Source of the DNA: a virus
Lineage: Duplodnaviria; Caudoviricetes
Direction: 5' to 3' (one strand)
Length of the DNA: 64,000 nucleotides
IMG/VR virus record: IMGVR_UViG_3300037067_027616
Span: 32,001-96,000 of that record
The position numbers were made by a program, and so were the translations under genes. The notes under the pieces are model-generated. The model searched no databases. It saw only the letters and a program-made list of their open reading frames with translations, and was not told where the DNA came from. Below, piece by piece: positions 548-52,831 of the stretch (position 1 is the stretch's first letter; each line of letters begins with the position of its first letter).

Positions 548-8233
<7,686 letters not shown>

Positions 8234-8980: not shown

Positions 8981-11065
8981 ATGGCCATAAGTTTTCCGCT
9001 TAATCCTAATGACGGGGATCTCTACATTACCCCAAACGGTACCAAATATGAGTATCGTGTGATTAGTAATTCGTGGGTTATTGTAGGTATACAAGACATC
9101 GGTAACCCGGGTGTAACAGGTCTGCAGGGTGTGACCGGTGCCGCAGGACAAGGAACAACAGGGCTTCCAGGAGAAACTGGTTTTCAAGGAGTAACAGGTG
9201 CTCAAGGACAAACCGGAGCGGGTATAGATGGTGCTACGGGTATCCAAGGTCCTACAGGGGCACAAGGGACAACGGGGGCGGGAATAGACGGGGCAACGGT
9301 TGCTCAAGGTGTAACGGGCTTGGGATCAACAGGTCTGCAAGGTATAACTGGTGATCAAGGCGCTACAGGTGATCAAGGCGCTACAGGTGAACAAGGCACT
9401 CAAGGTATTACTGGACAACAGGGGTCAACAGGACTTCAAGGGGCTACAGGGTCGCAAGGAGCTACAGGTAAACAAGGAGCAACGGGAGCACAAGGCTCTC
9501 AAGGTATTACTGGAGAACCGGGGATAACAGGTTTACAGGGAGCCACAGGCGAACAAGGGGCTACAGGTCAGCAAGGGGCTACAGGAGAACAAGGAATTCA
9601 AGGAGCCACAGGAGAACAAGGGCCTCAAGGAATAACAGGTCTACAAGCAATAACAGGTTCTCCAGGTATAACCGGTAGTGTGGGTGTCACAGGCAGCGGA
9701 GGTATTACAGGTACCGAGGGCGCGACAGGTTCACAAGGAGTTACTGGCGAGCAGGGGTTAACCGGAGCGCAAGGTGCAACCGGACAGCAAGGAGCAACAG
9801 GAGAACAAGGTGCCACGGGGGAAATAGGTATTACAGGGACACAAGCAATAACCGGATCTCCTGGTATAACAGGTAGTGGAGGTATCACCGGGACCGGAGG
9901 TATCACAGGTGCTGGTGGTATCACCGGACTTCAAGGTGCTACCGGACAACAAGGTGCTACTGGCGCTCAAGGCGCCACAGGGGCACAAGGGACAACGGGG
10001 GCTGCTGGAAGTGGTGGTGCAACAGGGGTGCAAGGTGAAACAGGTGCTCAAGGAGAAACAGGACTTCAAGGAACAACAGGCCTTGCGAACTTCATACAGA
10101 CAGACTCCTTTGATGCACCTGTGCTAGTGCCTGCCATAATGTGGAACTTCACAGACGAAACGTTCTATGGGTATGTTACAGGGGCTGGTGCTTGGATACA
10201 GATGTCTTCTGCTTCAAAAAGCGGCCCAACAGGGTTACAAGGCAGTACAGGATTACAGGGCCCTACAGGTATAGAAGGTTCTACAGGGCATCAAGGAGAA
10301 ACAGGTGCTCAAGGTCAAACAGGTGCCCTAGGTTTAGGCAGTACAGGATTACAGGGCCCTACAGGTATAGAAGGTTCTACAGGGCATCAAGGAGAAACAG
10401 GTGCTCAAGGTTTAGGCAGTACAGGTTTACAGGGTACTACAGGTATAGAAGGTTCTACGGGGCATCAAGGAGAAACAGGTGCTCAAGGTTTAGGCAGTAC
10501 AGGTTTACAGGGTACTACTGGATTACAAGGCACTACTGGACTACAAGGAAATACAGGTCTTCAAGGGATATCACATAAAGTTCTTATACTAGGTGCCGCC
10601 GGAGGGTGGGGATCTGTTACAAACGGGTGTGCGGGGCCTACTAGGACAGAACTAACAACAAATAAAGTAAATATACAGACATTAGATTTCGCTGCTGCCG
10701 CTCAAAAGTATGCCGAGTGGACTTGCTATCTACCAAGTAACTACACATCAGCGGCGACTATAACCGCAACATTTATATGGACAGCAAACTCCGCAACTAC
10801 CAACAGTGTTGTGTGGGGGTGTTCGGCTAGAGCATATGCAGACAGTGGTGCTCTAGATCAGGCTTATTCAGCAGGCGTAGAAGTAACTGATGCCAATAAT
10901 GCCACCTATGATTTAAATATTTCAGCGGCCACAGGTGCTGTTACTATTGCAGGGAGCCCTGCCGCAGGACAAATGTTACAAGTAAGAGTATATAGACTAG
11001 GGAGTGGAGCAGATAACTTGGCGGCAACAGCTAATCTATTACAAGTCATCATAACATATACGTAG
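8981..11065 (+). CDS. Second collagen-like fibre protein (694 aa)
   Basis: G-X-T/G-X-Q repeats in two tracts; N-terminal FPxxPxDGDLY motif; C-terminal domain resembles that of 548..8233. Confidence 0.9.
10241..10515 (+). repeat. Near-identical tandem DNA repeats (~78-96 bp) inside the second collagen gene
   Basis: Three copies of ggcagtacagg(a/t)ttacaggg...ggtatagaaggttctac.gggcatcaaggagaaacaggtgctcaaggt plus a partial fourth. Confidence 0.8.
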
Positions 11066-16012: not shown

Positions 16013-17737
16013 TTATTTTAGTCTCACCGAATACAACCGTCCGCCGTCAAGGAACATCACCGATGTGGTGTCATTGAGCAACCTGTCGCCCGTATGGAAC
16101 GGCGGGCCGTCAACGACCTTCACCTTCGTGGGATCCCGGAATACCTCCACCTGTTGGTCAGTCGGCTGGTGCACGCAAATTCCATTGGCAAGCACCGTGA
16201 AATGCACGGACGGATCAGAGGGGTCATCATCGATGCGCATTTTGTACGAAGAGAAGTCATCTGACATGAACAACACGAACCTTTTATACTTACCATCTTT
16301 TTCAGCCACGGCCATGAAAACACCACGCTCGTGCTTGGCATCTATGATACGGTGTCCATCCAGCTCTTTTACCCTACAATTCGAGCATTTACCCTCCGTG
16401 TAGGGTATCGCCAACCAACAAGTGCCGAGTACGTCCTGTACCGCCACCCCGGGGAACATCGTAGTGGACTGCTGAAGAACATTGCCCACAGGCTTCATGA
16501 AGTGAAGTACCTTGCCGTTCATGAAGGCAAAGGAACTCTCGGTCAGCACCCCGTTGTAGGCCGTGTAGATGCGGCCGTCATACTGCATGGCCTTGTCCGC
16601 AGCGATACGACCCACCAATCCTCCCTGCATATCGTGGAACACCACCTCGTGACTGTCCTGCTCCGCCAAAACTGGGTGGCTCCCAGGAACGCGCGCCAAA
16701 GAAACTTTGCCTGGCTTGCTTGTGAACTTTTTCACAAGGTTGCCGCCCACGTATACGCCTTCCTTGGTAATGGCACAGTCGCTACCATCGAAGAACCACA
16801 CCCCAAAAGCAGGCTCCCCATAGTCCCGGTACAAAGAAACCTCAAACGAGTCGGTACCTTTTACCACCACAGGGCGCAAAACGGCGATGAAACCGGATAC
16901 ATCCGGTAGGGGAGGCTCACAACGGGCCCCAGAAGGCCCCAGGACCTCTTTAAACCACGCCAAATGGGCTGGGGGTACCGCAGACCAATCCGACCACGGA
17001 GGGCCTACAGATACGTCTGGGTGGAATACTGAAAGGCCCTTGTCCATACGGACTGACCAATCGTTAGGACCGTACTTGGCGTGCTTGCCCTTCCGGTAGG
17101 GGTGGTAGCCCACATACATCTGCCAAGCAACTATGGCGAAACTATACCAATCGGATCCTTCAGAGAAATCACCAAATTTTATGGATCTATCCCGAATGCT
17201 CTCCATTATGGCTGTGGCTTTGAACGTGGGCGTCTGGTAGGAGTCTACATCTATGAACAGCACCTCTTGAAAATTTTTATCCAAAAGGAAATTCATCTCG
17301 TTTAAATCCACCACGAGGATGCCTTCACGGTGGATTTCGGACACGGTCAGTTGCATCCTTTTTACAAGGTGCATGATGGCGTCCGGAGTTATACCGTTGT
17401 CTGTTTTGAACCCCTTCCCGAACATACGACACAGAAACTCCGTCTGCTCGATGTATGGCATCGTGAAACCGATTGGTTTGTTGGTCTTGCCATCGAGCAA
17501 TATGTCACGCGGACCGAGGATGTTTCCAAAACGAGCCAACGGCGCCAATTCCCTCACTTTGGCTACGGATATCATTCTTTTGGGGTCGTGGTATACTTTG
17601 TAGGCCGTCGATCCGCGGCGGCACACCGTACCCTCACCGCCGGCGGCGATATAGTCGTTCTTGTTGAGGGTTTCCGACCCCTTGCCCTGCACAACGACTT
17701 TGTACGGGAAGTTCATTGTGCACTCCGTTACGGTCAC
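16013..17737 (-). CDS. Ser/Thr protein kinase of TerY-P type with C-terminal beta-rich domain
   Basis: GGEGTV Gly loop, AYKVY Lys, VDLNEMN catalytic loop, IDVDSY metal-binding motif. Confidence 0.85.
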   Translation of the reverse strand: MTVTECTMNFPYKVVVQGKGSETLNKNDYIAAGGEGTVCRRGSTAYKVYHDPKRMISVAKVRELAPLARFGNILGPRDILLDGKTNKPIGFTMPYIEQTEFLCRMFGKGFKTDNGITPDAIMHLVKRMQLTVSEIHREGILVVDLNEMNFLLDKNFQEVLFIDVDSYQTPTFKATAIMESIRDRSIKFGDFSEGSDWYSFAIVAWQMYVGYHPYRKGKHAKYGPNDWSVRMDKGLSVFHPDVSVGPPWSDWSAVPPAHLAWFKEVLGPSGARCEPPLPDVSGFIAVLRPVVVKGTDSFEVSLYRDYGEPAFGVWFFDGSDCAITKEGVYVGGNLVKKFTSKPGKVSLARVPGSHPVLAEQDSHEVVFHDMQGGLVGRIAADKAMQYDGRIYTAYNGVLTESSFAFMNGKVLHFMKPVGNVLQQSTTMFPGVAVQDVLGTCWLAIPYTEGKCSNCRVKELDGHRIIDAKHERGVFMAVAEKDGKYKRFVLFMSDDFSSYKMRIDDDPSDPSVHFTVLANGICVHQPTDQQVEVFRDPTKVKVVDGPPFHTGDRLLNDTTSVMFLDGGRLYSVRLK

Positions 17738-36961: not shown

Positions 36962-38353
36962 CTACTTTCGCATCTCGATAAGGTACTTGAGCGTGCACTG
37001 CTCGAGGCTGTACACGATGAGTTCATCGTTGTAGAGCGAGTGTCCCTTCTTTGCCCATATGCTGTCGTATCCGTGCGGGCGTCTGCAGGAACTTGTCGCC
37101 GTATGGGTGCGGCCCATGGCAAAGTCGGCAAGGAAGAGGAAGGCGTTGTTTGCGGAACTGCGCCGAGCTCCCCAATAACCAATGCTGTAGTTCAAACTTT
37201 TGGTGGAGTTGTTGGCCCCGTAAACCCCATCGTCGAACATGCGGCCGGTCACGTGCCCTGCCGTGGACGGCGGAATGATGAGTCCGCCTTTCATAATTGA
37301 AAGGATGTTCGCGTTTGCGGAGCCGTGGAACACCTCCTGCACGTTACCGTAACGCTTCAGCGCCGCCTCGTACCTGGCGCGTTCGGCAGGCAACTTGACG
37401 CGGTACACCGCCGCGACATCGTAGTCCCACACGTCCGTGCCGCGGTGGTTGCCGGCCTTGCTACCGCGCACGTACGCCTTGATACGCTTGACCTCGTCCA
37501 GGTCATTGAGGAATTCGACCTCGGTGCCGAGAGCATTAAGCCTTTGGCCCGTGTTGCCCGTCATGGCGGCGCCCATCTTAACGCCCGTTTCGAGCTGGTC
37601 GAGGATGTCGAATTCTTTCATTACCGCATCGGAAGTGAGGATCATGTCATCGGCGCTGATCCTCATGCTGAACGCCTTGGGAATGAGCGAGAAGTAGGCG
37701 GAATTGGCCTTCTTAACGTCTTGGTCATCGGCATCGGCACCGTTCTTACCGATGAGGGCATTGACCGCCTGCAGGGATACGCGCGCCTTGGCGACGTGCT
37801 GCGGGGTGACCGGACCCAATTCCGTAGCGTATCCATTGGATGTGAACTTGATGTTCGTGCTGGAGGTGATGTTGTGGATGTTCTCCTGCACGAGTTGGTC
37901 GAGCAACTTGGAGATGCGCGGGTCGGAGTGGGTCGTGTCGATGGCGGTCTTGACCGTGACCGTTTTCTCCGCTTTGCCCCGTATATTCTCGCTGCCCACG
38001 GACGGGCTGACCACGTCCACATCTACATACGCCTCACGTTCACCGGTTTCCTTGTTCGTCTTGCCGCGCAGTTTTTTCTTGTGTATGTCTTCGAACTCTT
38101 CCCGTGCGGTGGCCTCATCGGTGACAGGACGGCCGTCAGCAATGTCCCGTACCTCGTAAATGTTAGTTATGCCAAGCCTGCCATAGTGCGTGAAGATGCG
38201 ATAACGACCCTGTGAGTTTTTCTGCAATTCCAAACAGAAATACTTGTTGTGATTCGTTGAAACATTCGCTTGATGCATCACATAATAGGTGAGAGTCTCG
38301 TTGAATCCATCGTTGGCGTTGCTGGCAACTTTCCTCACCGTGAACTTTGGCAT
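36962..38353 (-). CDS. PARP-family ADP-ribosyltransferase: WGR domain + helical regulatory domain + catalytic domain
   Basis: NHNKYF..HYGRLG (WGR), YFSLIP (regulatory), FHGS / GRMF..GVYGA..STKSLNY / NDELIVY (H-Y-E triad). Confidence 0.9.
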   Translation of the reverse strand: MPKFTVRKVASNANDGFNETLTYYVMHQANVSTNHNKYFCLELQKNSQGRYRIFTHYGRLGITNIYEVRDIADGRPVTDEATAREEFEDIHKKKLRGKTNKETGEREAYVDVDVVSPSVGSENIRGKAEKTVTVKTAIDTTHSDPRISKLLDQLVQENIHNITSSTNIKFTSNGYATELGPVTPQHVAKARVSLQAVNALIGKNGADADDQDVKKANSAYFSLIPKAFSMRISADDMILTSDAVMKEFDILDQLETGVKMGAAMTGNTGQRLNALGTEVEFLNDLDEVKRIKAYVRGSKAGNHRGTDVWDYDVAAVYRVKLPAERARYEAALKRYGNVQEVFHGSANANILSIMKGGLIIPPSTAGHVTGRMFDDGVYGANNSTKSLNYSIGYWGARRSSANNAFLFLADFAMGRTHTATSSCRRPHGYDSIWAKKGHSLYNDELIVYSLEQCTLKYLIEMRK

Positions 38354-42055: not shown

Positions 42056-42120
42056 GTACAACGTCTGCGCTAAACGGACGCTGGCTTGCTTTGAATCTGG
42101 CGTTCCTTTAGCTTTTGTGC
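42056..42120 (-). repeat. attC-14 (R'' mutated AAC to AAA)
   Basis: Arms GCTAAAGGAACGCCAG/CCAGCGTCCGTTTAGC; R' GTTGTAC. Confidence 0.7.
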
Positions 42121-42351
42121 GAAGTGAACTTGGCTCTCCTTAATTGGCCGTGAATCCACCCACTGTATATGAATCGGAAAACACGGAACAAGACAAATCC
42201 ATACTTCCACCAATTTACAAATTGGCAACGAAAAAGATGGTGCGCCTTGTGGCATACACGTTTCACCACTGCGCCAAAATACGCCAACCCACATATCTGC
42301 CAATTTGTATTCTAAACAAATGTTGAGCATAAATATCCTTTGAAAAATCAC
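42070..42351 (-). CDS. Cassette ORF, hypothetical
   Basis: DMWVGVFW...WICLVPCFPI motif; ends in attC-14. Confidence 0.55.
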   Translation of the reverse strand: MIFQRIFMLNICLEYKLADMWVGVFWRSGETCMPQGAPSFSLPICKLVEVWICLVPCFPIHIQWVDSRPIKESQVHFAQKLKERQIQSKPASV

Positions 42352-42381
42352 GGCCTATGACTCAAAAACCAAGGCCATTTT

Positions 42382-42462
42382 GCACAACGTCCGCCGCACT
42401 CGCCCGAAGCGCGGTACACTATTTTTTATTTTTCACCGCGTTTTGGGCTGCGGCTGTTGTGG
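42382..42462 (-). repeat. attC-13
   Basis: CCACAAC..GCCGCAGCCCAAAACGCGGT / ACCGCGCTTCGGGCGAGTGCGGC..GTTGTGC. Confidence 0.8.
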
Positions 42463-42700
42463 GTTGGCTTTCCATATTTTTATTCCGAACCTCCGCCGCG
42501 ATTTTGCATCCCTCAACATGGCAAAAATCGTCAATATGGCAATCGAAACAGCACGTCAAATTCGGACACGCGCTTTGAACAACTTGATAAACCTCATCGC
42601 CGAATTTCTCTAGCAAGCTATTAAGAATAAAAGTTACCATGCGAGAGTTTTCGTGCATGATAATCTGACAATGGTTACAATCCCTGTCACATAATTTCAT
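42419..42700 (-). CDS. Cassette ORF, Cys-rich hypothetical
   Basis: CDRDCNHC...CPNLTCCFDC..FCH..C; RBS AGGAG. Confidence 0.6.
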   Translation of the reverse strand: MKLCDRDCNHCQIIMHENSRMVTFILNSLLEKFGDEVYQVVQSACPNLTCCFDCHIDDFCHVEGCKIAAEVRNKNMESQPTTAAAQNAVKNKK

Positions 42701-42751
42701 TTTTATTTTCTCCTAGTGGAGGACTATAACTCAATTATTCTGCCAGGACGC

Positions 42752-43090
42752 TCAAAATATCTTTCCGCCGTGCATGTACTCACGGTTACGATTGAACTCG
42801 ATTTTAGCAACGATGGCTTCTGCCACTTTCCAACCACGAGCCACGGCAACATCCATGATTCGAATAACCACATCAGCCAACTCCTCCTCAACAGCCGAGA
42901 ACTCGCCAATGTGCTCCGATGGTGGGTTGCCATGGCGGAGCCCTTCCAACGCCTCGGACAATTCAGACACCATAAGCATGAGCAACTCGCCATTGTTGCG
43001 GTCGCCCTTCCACCACCCCTTTGATACGGCAATTTCTTGCACGGCGGCGGCTATAGACTCCCATTGATACACAAATGCTTCTTTACTCAC
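42752..43090 (-). CDS. MazG-like NTP pyrophosphohydrolase
   Basis: SELSEALE..EEELADVVIR..D; GTG start overlaps the upstream stop. Confidence 0.85.
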   Translation of the reverse strand: MSKEAFVYQWESIAAAVQEIAVSKGWWKGDRNNGELLMLMVSELSEALEGLRHGNPPSEHIGEFSAVEEELADVVIRIMDVAVARGWKVAEAIVAKIEFNRNREYMHGGKIF

Positions 43091-43392
43091 GATGAGCCTA
43101 CTTTCTTTCCCCGGCCTATCACGCCAGAGCGCGGTTTCCACTTACGACAAGGTGTTCCAAGCCAGAAACCAACATCCCTACATTTGGGATGATAACAATT
43201 ACGGCATTCGCGAACGGTTGAAACCTTTCGTTGTTTTACGGGTGGCTTCCGCCAAACTGTGCGGCGGCGCTCAACTGATTTCAGAGCGGCGGTCTTTTGC
43301 CACTCTACACCAGCGAGAAAACCCGCCACATACCCGGGGTCGAAGTGCATGTTATCAACATATTTTTCGGCATACTGCTGTGTTCGTGTCAT
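43087..43392 (-). CDS. Cassette ORF, hypothetical; reads through the whole of attC-12
   Basis: GFLAGVEW motif; RBS GAGGAG. Confidence 0.6.
   Translation of the reverse strand: MTRTQQYAEKYVDNMHFDPGYVAGFLAGVEWQKTAALKSVERRRTVWRKPPVKQRKVSTVRECRNCYHPKCRDVGFWLGTPCRKWKPRSGVIGRGKKVGSS
43135..43236 (-). repeat. attC-12 (R' mutated GTT to GTG)
   Basis: AAACAAC.GAAAGGTTTCAA / TTGGAACACCTTGTCG..GTGGAAA. Confidence 0.6.
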
Positions 43393-43428
43393 TTCATCGC
43401 TCCTCTAAAATGGTCGTCGCCACATTGC

Positions 43429-43561
43429 AAACAACGTTTGCGACACAAGTGAACGTGCCTATGGCCTGTGTTGACACGACTCGCACCATATAATACCACG
43501 ACTGTCACGATAACCAATTACCTTCATACACCCAGGGCATGTCACTTTGTCGTTGTTGTGC
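43429..43561 (-). repeat. attC-11
   Basis: GCACAAC.CGACAAAGTGACATGC / GCACGTTCACTTGTGTCG..GTTGTTT. Confidence 0.8.
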
Positions 43562-43674
43562 GATGCGGAAGGAGTGCCTACTTTATGTTCGTGTTGGCGA
43601 CCCATGAACCAGCCGCATAGCCAGAAAAAACCTGCACCCATCAGCACTGATACAGCAGTAAGTAAAAGTCCCAT
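43459..43674 (-). CDS. Cassette ORF: TM helix plus attC-encoded Zn ribbon
   Basis: Hydrophobic N-terminus; CPGC..WCESC lies inside attC-11. Confidence 0.6.
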   Translation of the reverse strand: MGLLLTAVSVLMGAGFFWLCGWFMGRQHEHKVGTPSASHNNDKVTCPGCMKVIGYRDSRGIIWCESCQHRP

Positions 43675-43715
43675 GTCGCCAACCTCCCGATTAAGAAAAG
43701 CATGACTGAAATTTC

Positions 43716-43856
43716 ACACAACGTCCTCAGGCACCCGCCCGAAGTTGCCGCCCACAGAATGGACAAAAATTATATCCATTTTCGAGATAATAGCCGAGTG
43801 AAGCACGCTCTTCACAGCACGCACATGGCGGCAATTTTGGGCTGCCTGTGTTGTCG
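43716..43856 (-). repeat. attC-10
   Basis: CGACAAC.CAGGCAGCCCAAAATTGCCGCC / GGCGGCAACTTCGGGCGGGTGCCTG..GTTGTGT. Confidence 0.85.
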
Positions 43857-44293
43857 GCTGTGGCCTGCGCCTGGGCCGGTTCCACGATTGCCGCGAGACG
43901 CAACAGATACCTATGCAACTCAACGGGCGTGCGATTCGGCAGAGACTTCTTGAGTGCGTCCAACTCCCGCGAAAAGTATCCGACATCGACACCCCATTGG
44001 CGAAGTTGCACTATTCGTGCGTTGACCTTCGCTATGACACGATCTTTTTTATGCAACCCAACACCGCATAGTAACTCGTAAATGTCTTCGAATAGTGCGA
44101 TTTCGTCCATGGCGCTGTTGTGTGCCGTGCCTAACTCCTTAGCTTTGAGCGCTGCCCACTCTGCCCTCTGTTGCCATGTACCTATTTTGTCGGGGCATAA
44201 GGCGTAAGATATTTCTTCAATTTTTTCGATAAGCCACTTACAGTTTATGCCAAGCTGATCGGCACGTTTTGTTTCCATTTCAAGTTTTGTCAT
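43727..44293 (-). CDS. Fused two-cassette ORF (188 aa) spanning inactivated attC-9
   Basis: Start MTKLEM after AGGAG; open frame across 43981-44123. Confidence 0.65.
   Translation of the reverse strand: MTKLEMETKRADQLGINCKWLIEKIEEISYALCPDKIGTWQQRAEWAALKAKELGTAHNSAMDEIALFEDIYELLCGVGLHKKDRVIAKVNARIVQLRQWGVDVGYFSRELDALKKSLPNRTPVELHRYLLRLAAIVEPAQAQATADNTGSPKLPPCACCEERASLGYYLENGYNFCPFCGRQLRAGA
43981..44123 (-). repeat. attC-9 (R' mutated GTT to GAT)
   Basis: ACACAAC..CCATGGACGAAATCGCACTATTCG / CGAATAGTGCAACTTCGCCAATGG..GATGTCG. Confidence 0.8.
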
Positions 44294-44323
44294 AGCCGCG
44301 CTCCTATCATTAAAGGCATGGCA

Positions 44324-44458
44324 CCACAACATTTTCTAAATGGTTGATAGTTGCCGCATAGCCTCGATAAACAATGAAACTGGACCAGGGATATTATATC
44401 GTGGAAAAGTATCAACTTCTGCAAGACGAGCGGCAATTTCAGCCTTTAGCTGTTGTAG
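44324..44458 (-). repeat. attC-8
   Basis: CTACAACAGCTAAAGGCTGAAATTGCCGC / GCGGCAACTATCAACCATTTAG..GTTGTGG. Confidence 0.85.
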
Positions 44459-44596
44459 GCTGTTTGAGGAGGCTTCCATAGCTTCCTCAAATTTGATATA
44501 TTCTCCGCACTCACCTTTGTCACACATCTGGATAAAATCTGAATATCCAACAGGGCTACGAACCAATTTGTACCTTGTTAAATTTTCTACTGACAT
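44336..44596 (-). CDS. Cassette ORF, hypothetical (ends LQQLKAEIAA...RQLSTI)
   Basis: Start MSVENL after GAGGAGG. Confidence 0.65.
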   Translation of the reverse strand: MSVENLTRYKLVRSPVGYSDFIQMCDKGECGEYIKFEEAMEASSNSLQQLKAEIAARLAEVDTFPRYNIPGPVSLFIEAMRQLSTI

Positions 44597-44615
44597 AAAA
44601 GCCTCCTCAAATGGA

Positions 44616-44766
44616 CGACAACGTGCGCCGTTATGTGCAATCCGCAACTTTGGGCGGATTGAGGCGCTGGTACAACCAATCAACAAACTTGGATGATTCG
44701 CTATCAGCAACTTCCTTAACATATTCTCGCACCACTTCAAGCGCCGTCACATAGCGGCTGTTGTCG
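44616..44766 (-). repeat. attC-7
   Basis: CGACAAC.GCCGCTATGTG / CACATAACGGC..GTTGTCG. Confidence 0.75.
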
Positions 44767-44879
44767 GATCGTTGAGCGAGTTCCTTTACTGTTTTCCATG
44801 CCTCGCTTACGACTGGAGATATTGGATACGATATATCTAAAAAATTCTCTACTATGGATACAGGATCTTGGCTTGGCAT
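44631..44879 (-). CDS. Cassette ORF, hypothetical
   Basis: RBS GGAGG; stop inside attC-7. Confidence 0.6.
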   Translation of the reverse strand: MPSQDPVSIVENFLDISYPISPVVSEAWKTVKELAQRSDNSRYVTALEVVREYVKEVADSESSKFVDWLYQRLNPPKVADCT

Positions 44880-44913
44880 GGAAAACCTCCAATAAATTTA
44901 AGAGCATAATGTT

Positions 44914-44984
44914 CGACAACGTCTCGGCGCACCGCCCGATGCGGTACGCTACTCCTGGCCCGTTTCGGGCTGCGCCTGTTGTGC
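44914..44984 (-). repeat. attC-6
   Basis: GCACAAC.GGCGCAGCCCGA / TCGGGCGGTGCGCC..GTTGTCG. Confidence 0.85.
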
Positions 44985-45197
44985 GTTGTTCTCACGCCTA
45001 CCACCGCATTCTGCAATTTGTGACTCCAGATAGTTGATAACGGACTGTCCTATGTGGTTCGCAATAGCAGTGGCGCGGAACCTTCTGCACCCAACGGCTA
45101 TTTCGTCGTCATTCACGCACAGTGGGTCGCAGGCCACATACACCGGAGTACGAGCGCCGCTGCGAACTTTGACAGAGAAACAAAGCTGATTTTTCAT
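44949..45197 (-). CDS. Cassette ORF, hypothetical
   Basis: Start MKNQL after AGGGGG; stop inside attC-6. Confidence 0.55.
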   Translation of the reverse strand: MKNQLCFSVKVRSGARTPVYVACDPLCVNDDEIAVGCRRFRATAIANHIGQSVINYLESQIAECGGRRENNAQQAQPETGQE

Positions 45198-45230
45198 AAC
45201 AAATTGCCCCCTAAAACGTATGAGAATTTC

Positions 45231-45293
45231 GCACAACGTTCCGTAAATGTATGTTCGTTTGGCTTTGCAAATGACATACTTTACGTGTTAGAC
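45231..45293 (-). repeat. attC-5
   Basis: GTCTAAC.CGTAAAGTATGT / ACATACATTTACG..GTTGTGC. Confidence 0.85.
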
Positions 45294-45511
45294 GAATTTT
45301 TTCCAGCTTCCTTATCTTCTTTCAACTGGCGAAAATCTTTTGGAATACGATTGATACCAATAATTAAACTAATGGGAGCAAACAAAAAATTCAAAACAAT
45401 AACCCAAATATCCTTAATGAGATAATTACCTGTAATAACATGTTGAACACGCACACAAAAAACTGCCCATAAACAACACATCAAAAAATAAAGAATAAGA
45501 AATGTTATCAT
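45281..45511 (-). CDS. Cassette ORF: small AT-rich two-TM membrane protein
   Basis: Two hydrophobic helices; visibly lower GC than neighbours; RBS GAGGAG. Confidence 0.6.
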   Translation of the reverse strand: MITFLILYFLMCCLWAVFCVRVQHVITGNYLIKDIWVIVLNFLFAPISLIIGINRIPKDFRQLKEDKEAGKNSSNT

Positions 45512-45558
45512 GTTTTCTCCTCGCCAGTTTAACTATAAATTCAAGTTGGCAAAATTTT

Positions 45559-45699
45559 GTCTAACGTCACGGCCTATGCCTGCTGTACCGGCCTACACAT
45601 GCGACACTTGATGCAGATTTCCCAACCGATCACGTGCTTATTTTCGATTGGAGTCCACTGGTGATCGCAGGCTGGTATGGCAGATTGGGTCTGTTGTAC
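45559..45699 (-). repeat. attC-4
   Basis: GTACAAC.GACCCAATCTGCCATACCAGCCT / AGGCCGGTACAGCAGGCATAGGCC..GTTAGAC. Confidence 0.75.
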
Positions 45700-45951
45700 G
45701 CCTGTACAAGACAACCGAACAGACATGACGCAATAGCCTGCCGGAATGCCAAACTGGCCGCCATCCACCTTGTACACCACTTCGACCGCCACTTCGCGGC
45801 CAGAGTATTCGCAAATTGACGGTGACCACTCCCGCAAACGCAGAGTGTCCCCGACAGCGTAATGGCGGTCGTCCTTCCGATACTCAAACGTCTTGACTCC
45901 ATCCACCATGTGCTGAAACACCGACGGCCAAGTCTTCAATTCGTGCAACAT
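45574..45951 (-). CDS. Cassette ORF: ASCH/PUA-like DUF3850 protein
   Basis: HELKTWP..F...G.KTFEYRKDDR.Y.VGD.L.LREW. Confidence 0.8.
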   Translation of the reverse strand: MLHELKTWPSVFQHMVDGVKTFEYRKDDRHYAVGDTLRLREWSPSICEYSGREVAVEVVYKVDGGQFGIPAGYCVMSVRLSCTGVQQTQSAIPACDHQWTPIENKHVIGWEICIKCRMCRPVQQA

Positions 45952-45973
45952 AACTGCTCCTCCCGTGTATGGC

Positions 45974-46044
45974 GTACAACGTTCACTGCATGGCGAAGTG
46001 GTGTTTTAACCATTTGCAAAGCGAACGCCATGCAGTTGTTGGGC
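45974..46044 (-). repeat. attC-3
   Basis: GCCCAAC.ACTGCATGGCG / CGCCATGCAGT..GTTGTAC. Confidence 0.85.
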
Positions 46045-46156
46045 GATGTAATTTTTTGCCATATTGATAGGCAATAACTTCAACCGCCTCGTTAAGTCCG
46101 ATTGGAATACCTTGTCGCACTAGGTCGCTCAACTTTTCCAATCTATCATCAACCAT
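45983..46156 (-). CDS. Cassette ORF, 57 aa, absent from the ORF track (MVDDRLEKLSDLVRQGIPIG...HHFAMQ)
   Basis: GGAGG RBS, ATG at 46156, TGA inside the attC-3 right arm. Confidence 0.6.
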   Translation of the reverse strand: MVDDRLEKLSDLVRQGIPIGLNEAVEVIAYQYGKKLHRPTTAWRSLCKWLKHHFAMQ

Positions 46157-46178
46157 AATTCCTCCAAAAAATTATTTC

Positions 46179-46316
46179 GCCCAACGTATGCTAAACGGCT
46201 GACAGTTGCCGCAACTTAGCACAAAAAGAGTTGGTTACATCACTATCGCACTTCCACGAACCTTTAGTTTGATACTCATTAACGACTGCGGCAATTTCAG
46301 CCTTTAGCTGTTGTAG
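46179..46316 (-). repeat. attC-2
   Basis: CTACAACAGCTAAAGGCTGAAATTGCCGCA / TGCGGCAACTGTCAGCCGTTTAG..GTTGGGC; two bulged bases. Confidence 0.9.
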
Positions 46317-46439
46317 GCCCGTTGTTTGCGACTCCGCCTCTTCCAGAGTTTTTATGGACAAGTCCACAGCCTCCGAAAGCATAATACGACCATGAGGATA
46401 GTTGCTCTTGAGAACCGCAATCGCTTCTTTATTGTCCAT
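46191..46439 (-). CDS. Cassette ORF, hypothetical (ends LQQLKAEIAA...RQLSAV)
   Basis: AGGAGG RBS; EAIAVLK.NYP...L.EAVDLSI motif. Confidence 0.65.
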   Translation of the reverse strand: MDNKEAIAVLKSNYPHGRIMLSEAVDLSIKTLEEAESQTTGLQQLKAEIAAVVNEYQTKGSWKCDSDVTNSFCAKLRQLSAV

Positions 46440-46473
46440 AAAAACCTCCTATGAATGGTTCGCAAACTATGGC

Positions 46474-46616
46474 CTACAACGTGTGGCAAAGGGTTGATGC
46501 AATTAAACGCTATAGGCCCCGCACCTATGACCACAACGTTTACCTCCGGCATAAGGACAGCTTTCAGTTTTACGACAGATGCTGCGTTTAATTGTTTCAC
46601 CCTTTGTAGGTTGGTG
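46474..46616 (-). repeat. attC-1
   Basis: CACCAAC..CAAAGGGTGAAACAATTAAACGC / GCGTTTAATTGCATCAACCCTTTG..GTTGTAG. Confidence 0.9.
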
Positions 46617-46745
46617 GCCCGTGGCCGCTTGCGCCTGGGCCGCCTCGACATCTGCAATGGCAATATTTAACGCTTCGCGCAAACCACCATATCTCTCGTC
46701 AGGCCAATTTGCCTTGATTAACCGTACAGCTTCTGCCCGTTCCAT
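46503..46745 (-). CDS. First cassette ORF, hypothetical
   Basis: EAVRLIKANWP..Y..LREALNIAI, related to the cassette-2 N-terminus. Confidence 0.6.
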   Translation of the reverse strand: MERAEAVRLIKANWPDERYGGLREALNIAIADVEAAQAQAATGHQPTKGETIKRSICRKTESCPYAGGKRCGHRCGAYSV

Positions 46746-46771
46746 TTAATCCTCTCCGGCCCGCAGGCCAT

Positions 46772-46810
46772 GGACACCAACTATACGTATGATGAAACGC
46801 CTTTGTGTAA
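46772..46810 (-). other. Candidate attI-like primary insertion site (...CATACGTATAG/TTGGTGTCC)
   Basis: GTTGGTG complements R'' of cassette 1 but has no hairpin upstream. Confidence 0.5.
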
Positions 46811-51522: not shown

Positions 51523-51837
51523 TCAACGCCACCCGAAGAATTTCCTTAAAAACCATCTGCACAAGAAATTTTTTCCTGACGCATCGGGTGTAGGCAATCT
51601 TTCTTTTTTATTGTGGTCACGCCAGTTATTTATAATACGACGCGCGTCTTTGTGCATGCTGCGAGTATTGGTGTACGGCCCTAAAGTTATAATTATGAAA
51701 CCGTCTGGTGTGGTTTCCACCCTGCTTGCCTCAAATTCAGATAAATGGCACTTGTCAAACAATTTCATTAAAAGACCCTTTTGATCCCATTTTGACGGCC
51801 GAGCAGTACACAAGCTTGACAGTTTCATCAACGTCAT
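51523..51837 (-). CDS. Hypothetical protein (start probably MKLFDK)
   Basis: Packed operon ORF. Confidence 0.4.
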   Translation of the reverse strand: MTLMKLSSLCTARPSKWDQKGLLMKLFDKCHLSEFEASRVETTPDGFIIITLGPYTNTRSMHKDARRIINNWRDHNKKERLPTPDASGKNFLCRWFLRKFFGWR

Positions 51838-52831
51838 CCAAAGAACACTCTTCCACCGGGGTGTGCATGTATCTCACCGGAACAGATATGTTGATGGTAG
51901 GTATACCAACGTTGGTCAGACGTATAGCGTCCGCATCCGTGCCTGTCTCATTTGGTTCAGGGGCTATCTGAATGTCTATGTTATTCTCCTTTGCGGCCTC
52001 CTTGACGCACTGAAGCAGCACCTTATTGCAAGCCGCCCCCACAGTCACGATGGGACCTTTGCCCAAGGATATGCTCCCAACTTTTTTGGCATCGGTATCA
52101 TCGGGAGTGTCAGTCGCAAAAAACACATCCACCACGATTGCCGCATCAGGTTTTATGATGTTGGCAACTGTCTTCGCTCCGCACAACCCTATTTCTTCTT
52201 GGACGGTCGAAACGCCATAAAGCGTCAAAGGATCCTTGGCACCACACTCATGGGCGTAGCGAACAACTTCAGCCGCCACGAACGCCCCAATTTTGTCATC
52301 AAGGCCACGATTGGATAACCTTTTGTAATCACCACAAGGAAGAAGAATCGGGGATCCAGACTGCATATAGGCAACACTACCTACAGGTATAACTGAAGCA
52401 GCCTCTTGAAATGAAGATGCACCGACATCTATCCACAGGTCATGCACCTTCGTTTTTTTCTTTTCGTCGTCCTCATCTTGAAGGTGTATAGGTTGCCGTC
52501 CTATGACACCTATGACATCCGAGCAATGAAATTTTACCCTGGTACCCTGCAGGATATCAACGTCAACACCGCCTATCGGGGCAAAATGTGCGAAACCTTT
52601 GTCCGTGATGTGTGTTATCATAAGCCCTATTTCATCGCAGTGTCCTACGACCATGACGGTCTTATTGCTCACGGGTGTCCGCGCCCACGCGTTTCCCATG
52701 GAGTCCGTATCGTATTTAGCGGCGTATGGCATGACATACTTCAGCCACTCTCTTTGACCGAAAATTTCATAACCGGAAGGCGTACCACACTCGAGGAACC
52801 TCATGAGGAAATCCAACGATTCAGAGCGCAT
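51755..52831 (-). CDS. M42-family metallo-aminopeptidase
   Basis: PSGYE, HCDEIG, LDDKIG, VQEEIG, GTDAD, RYMHTP.E. Confidence 0.92.
   Translation of the reverse strand: MRSESLDFLMRFLECGTPSGYEIFGQREWLKYVMPYAAKYDTDSMGNAWARTPVSNKTVMVVGHCDEIGLMITHITDKGFAHFAPIGGVDVDILQGTRVKFHCSDVIGVIGRQPIHLQDEDDEKKKTKVHDLWIDVGASSFQEAASVIPVGSVAYMQSGSPILLPCGDYKRLSNRGLDDKIGAFVAAEVVRYAHECGAKDPLTLYGVSTVQEEIGLCGAKTVANIIKPDAAIVVDVFFATDTPDDTDAKKVGSISLGKGPIVTVGAACNKVLLQCVKEAAKENNIDIQIAPEPNETGTDADAIRLTNVGIPTINISVPVRYMHTPVEECSLDDVDETVKLVYCSAVKMGSKGSFNEIV

Follow-up and report, generated by a model that had tools for sequence, protein, structure and literature searches.

Predicted translation into attC-like sites in a phage cassette array, with long hairpin loops as candidate exchangeable C-terminal protein modules

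Here we describe an integron-type cassette array in a 64,000-nt stretch of viral DNA (the window; bases 32001-96000 of the 466,729-bp IMG/VR virus record IMGVR_UViG_3300037067_027616; 49% GC; 98% complete by CheckV). The array occupies window positions 42056-46781 and consists of ∼13 minus-strand cassettes with an imperfect palindrome of the attC type after each open reading frame (ORF); every credible ORF in this interval is on the minus strand, and the palindromes lie between the ORFs. Read on the plus strand, each palindrome takes the form ...YAAC-G-(3-5 nt)-stem...stem-(T)-GTTR..., and a comparison with the whole genome found the ACAACG motif concentrated in the 5 kb of the array. The cassette ORFs run on into these sites. 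We consider it probable that the array is a phage cluster of attC-like sites lacking an integron integrase (CALIN) in which the hairpin arms are constrained as DNA and the long loops as protein, so that a hairpin and the tail it encodes form an exchangeable C-terminal module. The features of the array, listed from its start, are as follows (ORFs w1 to w13 and sites share their numbering; "model" refers to the covariance model described below).

46775..46781, minus strand: lone R box, CACCAAC on the plus strand and GTTGGTG on the coding strand, without a hairpin; array start, an attI-like junction
46503..46745, minus strand: ORF w13, 80 aa; tail HQPTKGE...C..C..CGHRC encoded in site 13
46472..46612, minus strand: attC-like site 13, long (folding); stop at 0.79 of the site
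46191..46439, minus strand: ORF w12, 82 aa; tail LQQLKAEIAA...RQLSAV
46177..46317, minus strand: attC-like site 12, long (model, 26 bits); 3'-arm stop TAG at 0.92 of the site
45983..46156, minus strand: ORF w11, 57 aa (from the ORF list)
45972..46045, minus strand: attC-like site 11, short (folding; model, 24.7 bits)
45574..45951, minus strand: ORF w10; DUF3850 core (residues 3-77; Pfam E=5e-26), arm-encoded linker and 34-aa Cys-rich tail
45557..45700, minus strand: attC-like site 10, long (folding and model); stop at 0.89 of the site
45281..45511, minus strand: ORF w9, 76 aa, membrane-like; stop two codons past a TAAC-type R''
45231..45295, minus strand: attC-like site 9, short (folding); R'' is GTCTAAC
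44949..45197, minus strand: ORF w8, 82 aa; tail AQQAQPETGQE
44912..44985, minus strand: attC-like site 8, short (model, 53 bits)
44631..44879, minus strand: ORF w7, 82 aa, more than half of it inside site 7; loop homologous at the protein level to an ORF of locus L098
44614..44767, minus strand: attC-like site 7, long (folding and model)
44336..44596, minus strand: ORF w6, 86 aa; body homologues in loci L029, L117 and L150 with other loops or tails
44322..44460, minus strand: attC-like site 6, long (folding); same arm family as site 12
43727..44293, minus strand: ORF w5, 188 aa; putative zinc-ribbon tail NTGSPKLPP-CACC...CPFC-GRQLRAGA
43714..43857, minus strand: attC-like site 5, long (model, 48 bits); loop under purifying selection, arms identical to the copy in locus L143
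43459..43674, minus strand: ORF w4, 71 aa; transmembrane helix and putative zinc ribbon, the ribbon upstream of R''
43428..43478, minus strand: attC-like site 4, short and weak; stop in the loop, missed by the model
43087..43392, minus strand: ORF w3, 101 aa; R'' box at 43230-43237 followed by a Cys cluster, 3' arm and R' decayed
42752 to about 43092, minus strand: MazG-like gene, no attC after it
42419..42700, minus strand: ORF w2, 93 aa; tail TTAAAQNAVKNKK
42380..42463, minus strand: attC-like site 2, short; best match to the family model, 86.5 bits
42070..42351, minus strand: ORF w1, 93 aa, of doubtful coding quality; runs into site 1
42056..42122, minus strand: attC-like site 1, degenerate (folding); R'' is CACAAAA, distal end of the array

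An earlier reading made from the sequence alone (the original prediction) had named thirteen stop positions, all of which coincide with the low ends of minus-strand ORFs. The start of the MazG-like gene overlaps the end of ORF w3 (window 42752-43392), and this stretch looks like cassettes fused through site decay. A Pfam search with ten cassette proteins returned only DUF3850 and a weak zinc-ribbon match, and blastn of the array region against the phage collection returned no match.

The twelve window hairpins were located by eye and by folding. Crude regular-expression and stem scans had a background of 12-17 matches per strand in a shuffled genome and were therefore replaced by a covariance model trained on nine short sites, of which the window supplied two and related loci seven. 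At E<0.1 this model recovers seven of the window sites and misses sites 1, 3, 4, 6, 9 and 13, which are defined by eye and folding only. The modelled structure covaries, with 11 of 25 pairs changed on both sides and 85% of cells paired, as against 36-47% when the partner is slid; none of 500 shuffles matched the observed value. More than 140 sites were found by the model in related loci, and its matches are confined to arrays and share one polarity within each, be it in the window, in a second array of the same phage, in other viral and metagenome contigs or in bacterial metagenome-assembled genomes (MAGs), whose contigs are assigned to Chitinivibrionales, Fibrobacteres and one unclassified bin. 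The second array is smaller and lies outside the window at ∼142.2-144.0 kb of the record (locus L029, 4186-6000); its minus-strand ORFs also run into their sites, and one of them, a w6 paralogue, has another tail that is rich in Cys. An array of the same attC family is also present in L032 (CAZUBH010000002.1, 168 kb), a contig labelled as a Thermoplasmatales archaeon MAG that may be a mis-binned phage or bacterial contig.

As in attC sites, R'' (RYYYAAC) and R' (GTTRRRY) boxes flank L''/L' stems and a variable loop in all twelve window sites. The coding-strand R'' reads CAAC in 10 of the 12, the exceptions being site 9 (TAAC) and site 1 (CAAAA, degenerate), and CAAC also predominates in the family, where it is found in 98 of 122 sites with TAAC in a further 13, in line with the prevalence of CAAC noted in the original prediction. 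CAAC is compatible with the RYYYAAC consensus, and TAAC can still be read through in two of the three frames. The outer bases of the R boxes fit the neighbouring site (40/55) better than their own partner (29/55; permutation p<1e-4), a footprint of cassettes inserted as circles; the lone R box at 46775..46781 pairs in this way with the R'' of site 13 (4/5 outer bases), and the match between R'' and the R' remnant at the cassette start holds too in L026 and L031. AAC is followed by G on the plus strand in 11 of the 12 window sites, as described for attC bottom strands, where G comes directly after the R' box AAC (PMC2727003), and in 12/12 sites G-T pairs make the fold of the plus strand, taken as the bottom strand, more stable than that of the coding strand.

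Locus L031, a bacterial MAG contig, carries in order a recombinase gene, a lone GTTGTAAG box and codirectional ORF-attC units. Together with the lone box at the start of the window array and the AAC-G strand, this order indicates the usual cassette layout, in which each ORF is followed by its own attC and the crossover falls at the distal R'. The L031 recombinase gene (249-1115) is codirectional with the cassettes; a second recombinase adjoins the array of another bacterial MAG contig, L036 (817-2364), and its protein has an extra N-terminal ∼230 aa. Both are Xer-like, with a best match to the XerA-type NF040815. A true IntI is encoded in one MAG, on an unlinked contig. The phage itself has no PF00589 or TIGR02249 match to a tyrosine recombinase anywhere in the 466,729-bp record. 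A complete integron has an adjacent IntI with the IntI-specific extra domain (TIGR02249, at least 265 bits), which this array lacks; a CALIN has at least two attC sites close together without an integron integrase, and in a record without a recombinase the array is of this second kind.

Translation into the sites was assessed in a set comprising the window and 122 further unique sites from related loci, which together gave 101 cassettes with a credible ORF; the entering frame was defined as that with the longest open stretch entering R''. It had been predicted that each ORF reads into its own recombination site, and the stop indeed lies beyond R'' in 97 of the 101 cassettes, the MazG-like gene, which has no site, being a case to which the statement does not apply. 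Within the array family the ORF overlaps its site by 30-150 nt. Sites were divided into short (<110 nt, N=51) and long (110-170 nt, N=50), and it is the long sites that depart from chance: in 47 of 50 cases the entering frame meets no stop across 70% or more of the site, compared with 25 of 100 other frames (Fisher p=7e-17), and the 3' arm typically holds the stop, at 0.9 of the site and ∼10 nt before R'. All three frames are used across the same arms, giving NTGSPK..., QQPQPK... or TTAAAQN..., and the arm peptides themselves are thus not a conserved domain; with only 12% T on its coding strand, the 5' arm yields a hydrophilic stretch from every frame. Read-through also shortens the untranslated gap between the cassette ORF and the next start preceded by a Shine-Dalgarno sequence, to a median of 54 nt at long sites from the 170 nt expected if translation stopped at R''. 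Carvalho et al. (2024, PMC11511950) report weaker expression of the next cassette with longer untranslated stretches, and it is therefore plausible that long-site read-through eases polarity on the cassette downstream.

The long loops behave as coding sequence in the frame in which they are entered. Real-frame loops contain 9.8% Cys and 19 CxxC motifs, compared with 3.6% Cys and 2 motifs in one shifted frame and 5.7% Cys and 8 motifs in the other; at least four Cys are encoded in 18 of 50 long loops, and some loops have CxxCxGxG motifs. Of five Cys clusters that had been placed inside hairpins, three are there (CACC..CPFC in site 5, CDH..CIKC in site 10 and the cluster of site 13), whereas CRNC... 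lies downstream of the R'' at 43230-43237 in a decayed site and CPGC..CESC lies upstream of the R'' of site 4. The recurring peptide LQQLKAEIAA...RQLS(A/T)(V/I), also noted in the original prediction, is encoded in sites 6 and 12 and recurs in metagenome loci L098, L117, L073 and L150. Between site 5 and its copy in metagenome locus L143, DNA homology starts at R'' and fades just past R'; the loop has undergone 10 synonymous and 2 non-synonymous changes (proportion of synonymous sites changed, pS, 0.67; of non-synonymous sites, pN, 0.033; pN/pS ∼0.05) and the arms none at ∼14 synonymous sites. The L026 and L005 loops likewise differ mainly at synonymous positions (pS 0.96, pN 0.30; pN/pS ∼0.3), and over this pair and a more distant site-5 copy, L133, loop pS is 0.88-0.96 and pN 0.30-0.41 with nearly unchanged arms. 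The w7 loop is conserved at the protein level in L098. Frozen arms and synonymous-biased loops show that the arms evolve as DNA and the loops as protein, and the coding constraint that had been proposed as a check is found in the long-site loops, although from few pairs.

The tail encoded by site 5 is shared by the w5, L143 and L133 proteins, which have unrelated N-terminal bodies. A search of 1.84 billion representative proteins with this 47-residue tail returned 37 matches, 32 of which are small proteins (75-125 aa) bearing NTGSPKLPP-CxxC-x(14-19)-CPxCGRQLRA(G/S)A. The motif lies within a few residues of the C-terminus in 29 of these 32 clusters and both CxxC knuckles (four Cys) are kept in 28, while the bodies fall into 29 groups without detectable similarity to one another. 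Covariation of the arms is visible even in the proteins, with KLPP accompanied by GRQL and KF(S/T)P or KYSP by GRKL in 4/4 cases. Conversely, related bodies carry unlike tails: in L156, the homologue of the w5 body ends in another tail that uses a different frame, and the w6 body family (window, second array, L117 and L150) has four. The w10 DUF3850 protein has 390 relatives in viral contigs, nearly all matching residues 1-80 only, and its database homologues of 84-98 aa lack the tail; its AlphaFold 2 model has a core at pLDDT ∼90, an arm-encoded linker (residues 81-91) at ∼58 and a three-stranded tail at 71-79. The occurrence of the hairpin-plus-tail unit on many unrelated ORF bodies supports, from sequence comparison, the view that a long-site attC and its encoded tail are a portable C-terminal module, as the original prediction had proposed for attC in general; frame, constraint and the 29 unrelated bodies sustain the proposal for long sites.

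Several points weigh against this interpretation. The geometry of the sites is non-canonical: the R'-L' arm carries bulges of 3 nt and a spacer of 4-6 nt, compared with ∼1 nt on the R'' side, whereas in canonical attC sites the extrahelical bases belong to the R''-L'' arm and the unpaired central spacer is two-sided (PMC2727003); the bulged R'-L' arm is the 5' arm of the plus strand, opposite to class-1 attC sites. The L031 and L036 recombinases score 149-177 bits, below the 265-bit IntI cut-off (TIGR02249), and the IntI-specific insertion is unmatched. All cassette proteins are predictions, and most of the 32 tail-bearing clusters are known from the protein only, although some coincide with loci examined here (P0020 is L133). 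The constraint ratios are based on two diverged loop pairs. A zinc ribbon is defined by two CxxC knuckles, spaced by ∼15-20 residues, on a zinc-binding beta hairpin. Zinc binding by the Cys-rich tails is only suggested: the w5 tail matches Pfam Zn_Ribbon_1 at E=0.008, below the cut-off, and a single-sequence AlphaFold 2 model of the isolated tail has a mean pLDDT of 66.7, with 64-80 over the ribbon. The bulge position also prompted us to consider an "inverted" cassette model, with the crossover at R'' and the hairpin belonging to the downstream ORF. This layout was ruled out by the hairpin-less GTTGGTG at the array start, the recombinase-box-ORF-attC order in L031 and the location of AAC-G on the non-coding strand.

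Under the reading that we favour, the plus strand would fold as the bottom strand, and a Xer/IntI-like tyrosine recombinase of the host would presumably recombine it at the distal R' box. Ribosomes translating cassette ORFs that have no stop before R'' would pass into the T-poor, stop-poor 5' arm and make a hydrophilic linker; at short sites they would terminate in the AT-rich loop, and at long sites the variable loop would act as a coding segment, 25-40 codons in length and in many cases forming a CxxC...CxxC zinc ribbon, with the stop in the 3' arm. Tails would be exchanged at or near R'', by a top-strand event or by homologous recombination across identical arms, and read-through of the hairpin would lessen polarity on the next cassette. 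The parts of this scheme seen in the sequences themselves are the overlap of ORF and site, the open entering frame, the constrained loops and the modular distribution of the tails.

How the tails are exchanged is where competing explanations fare best. Homologous recombination or gene conversion across the 25-30 nt conserved arms, possibly together with concerted evolution of attC sites within arrays, could swap tails without any site-specific exchange at R'', and we regard this as a serious contender, if somewhat short of an even chance: the arms of site 5 and its L143 copy are identical over ∼26-30 nt, and canonical IntI cleaves only at R'. Homology between the copies nevertheless begins exactly at the R'' box, and top-strand events are reported to move the crossover to R'' (PMC2727003), neither of which is decisive. 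Exchange at R'' may still account for tail swapping even with the inverted layout rejected. A bolder and more tentative proposal, to which we give slightly less credence, is that the attC hairpin and its coding loop form an autonomous module exchanged at both R boxes, making this an integron-like system that shuffles domains as well as genes. If true, these sites would be the natural counterpart of engineered coding attC sites and would offer a clue to how cassettes are made, in which an attC, fused in frame at a gene's 3' end, would replace the stop codon and supply a linker, a mini-domain and a stop.

The remaining contrary observations favour incidental read-through, in which compact cassettes, R'' boxes without a stop and stop-poor, GC-rich arms would leave tails that have no selected function. 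In most resistance cassettes attC already overlaps the stop codon (PMC11511950). Short sites have their stop in the AT-rich loop, at a median of ∼0.46 of the site, and the entering frame is open in 41/51 cases compared with 89/102 other frames, which amounts to no preference; stop triplets occur there at 0.015, 0.069 and 0.011 per nt in the first arm, loop and second arm, respectively. The arms are equally stop-poor on both strands (0.020/0.024 as against 0.015/0.020 stop triplets per nt), ruling out a strand-specific depletion of stops, and a role for short loops as suppliers of stops in three frames was likewise ruled out (10/67 sites, compared with 16.9±3.1 in shuffles). Given stop-poor arms and no frame preference, short-site read-in needs no special selection and looks like a by-product of the arms, its tails of 10-13 aa probably being incidental; a good part of all read-in can thus be had without selection, and the suggestion of a general selection for translatable sites is not supported. 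The use of the same arms in three frames points the same way, as do the wholly different loops found among homologous w6-type bodies, on the strength of which many loops may be fast-evolving or dispensable. The long sites, however, contradict incidental read-through by their frame bias (47/50 open, as against 25/100), a loop pN/pS of 0.05 and 0.3, the four Cys kept in 28/32 diverged tails and a CxxC enrichment restricted to the real frame, and we consider it unlikely as an overall explanation. Read-through beyond chance, as originally proposed, is therefore a property of the long sites, that of the short sites being equal to any frame.

It is very improbable that the conserved stretches are simply protein motifs, of small proteins with a linker and a C-terminal zinc ribbon, and their palindromy a coincidence, since, although a coherent zinc-ribbon-like motif does occur at the extreme C-terminus of 29/32 clusters, synonymous sites are frozen in the arms (0 of ∼14) yet 67% of those in the loop have changed, the arms serve in three frames and show base-pair covariation, the neighbour rule for flanking bases holds and the arrays adjoin tyrosine recombinases.

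Phage CALINs have already been reported, each of 2-4 sites (Qi et al. 2023, PMC9892861), and the present array, with ∼13, resembles them in residing in a phage without an integrase. As in them and in integron cassettes, the ORFs are promoterless and codirectional, and behind each comes an imperfect palindrome bearing RYYYAAC/GTTRRRY boxes; as in integrons, structure is conserved above sequence, each R'' agrees with the R' before it, the array opens with a lone box and the bottom strand carries AAC-G. It differs from integrons in having the extra bases and the long spacer on the R'-L' rather than the R''-L'' arm, in the Xer-like recombinases below the IntI cut-off that adjoin related arrays, in an overlap between ORF and site of 30-150 nt rather than 0-15 nt, and in a variable terminal structure that encodes a selected peptide. 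ORFs "sometimes overlapping" attC, or overlapping it at the stop codon, have been recorded, and the ACID annotation scheme allowed a 15 bp overlap. Nivina et al. (2020, PMC7439510) designed synthetic attC sites within coding sequences in silico and used IntI1 to test them; there too, one DNA segment both folds as attC and encodes protein, with the arms as flexible linkers, but the sites described here are natural and widespread and their loops encode a predicted mini-domain, beyond a linker. Short ORFs within attC aid downstream translation (reviewed in PMC8876359), and extending translation up to attC raises expression (PMC11511950). The present case, known from sequence alone, shares with these studies the passage of ribosomes through or up to attC as an influence on the next cassette; the difference is that they concern a separate short ORF or a stop at R'', whereas here the ORF of the cassette itself crosses the hairpin. 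The tails have the CxxC-x(14-19)-CPxCG spacing and predicted small beta-hairpins of C-terminal zinc ribbons (Pfam Zn_Ribbon_1 and relatives), but they fall below the Pfam cut-off, their knuckles lie at the base of a DNA hairpin, and unrelated proteins carry the module through a recombination site. Our literature search, which was incomplete and is no proof of absence, found no description of natural attC loops translated into selected, shared protein modules.

Elsewhere in the window, a 463-aa ORF (36962-38353) has WGR, PARP regulatory and PARP catalytic domains (E=2.5e-20), unusual for a phage. A 2561-aa ORF (548-8233) is followed by a 694-aa protein with collagen triple-helix repeats (8981-11065; E=9e-53), both of which are probably virion or fibre proteins. 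A weak protein-kinase-like match (16013-17737; E=1e-4) and a clear M42 glutamyl aminopeptidase (51755-52831; E=3e-77) were also found.

The attC site is usually regarded as non-coding and defined by structure only, whereas a whole attC family, in phages and bacteria, here appears routinely open to translation, with the variable loop turned into a selected C-terminal module on at least 29 unrelated proteins. Annotation pipelines that forbid overlap between ORF and attC will truncate or miss such genes. These sites would represent a natural two-layer coding, the arms being constrained for DNA structure and the loop for the protein that it encodes, and a possible route to domain shuffling via site-specific recombination. 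They may also provide a handle on two questions of integron biology, namely the origin of cassettes and how long hairpins avoid silencing the cassettes downstream of them.

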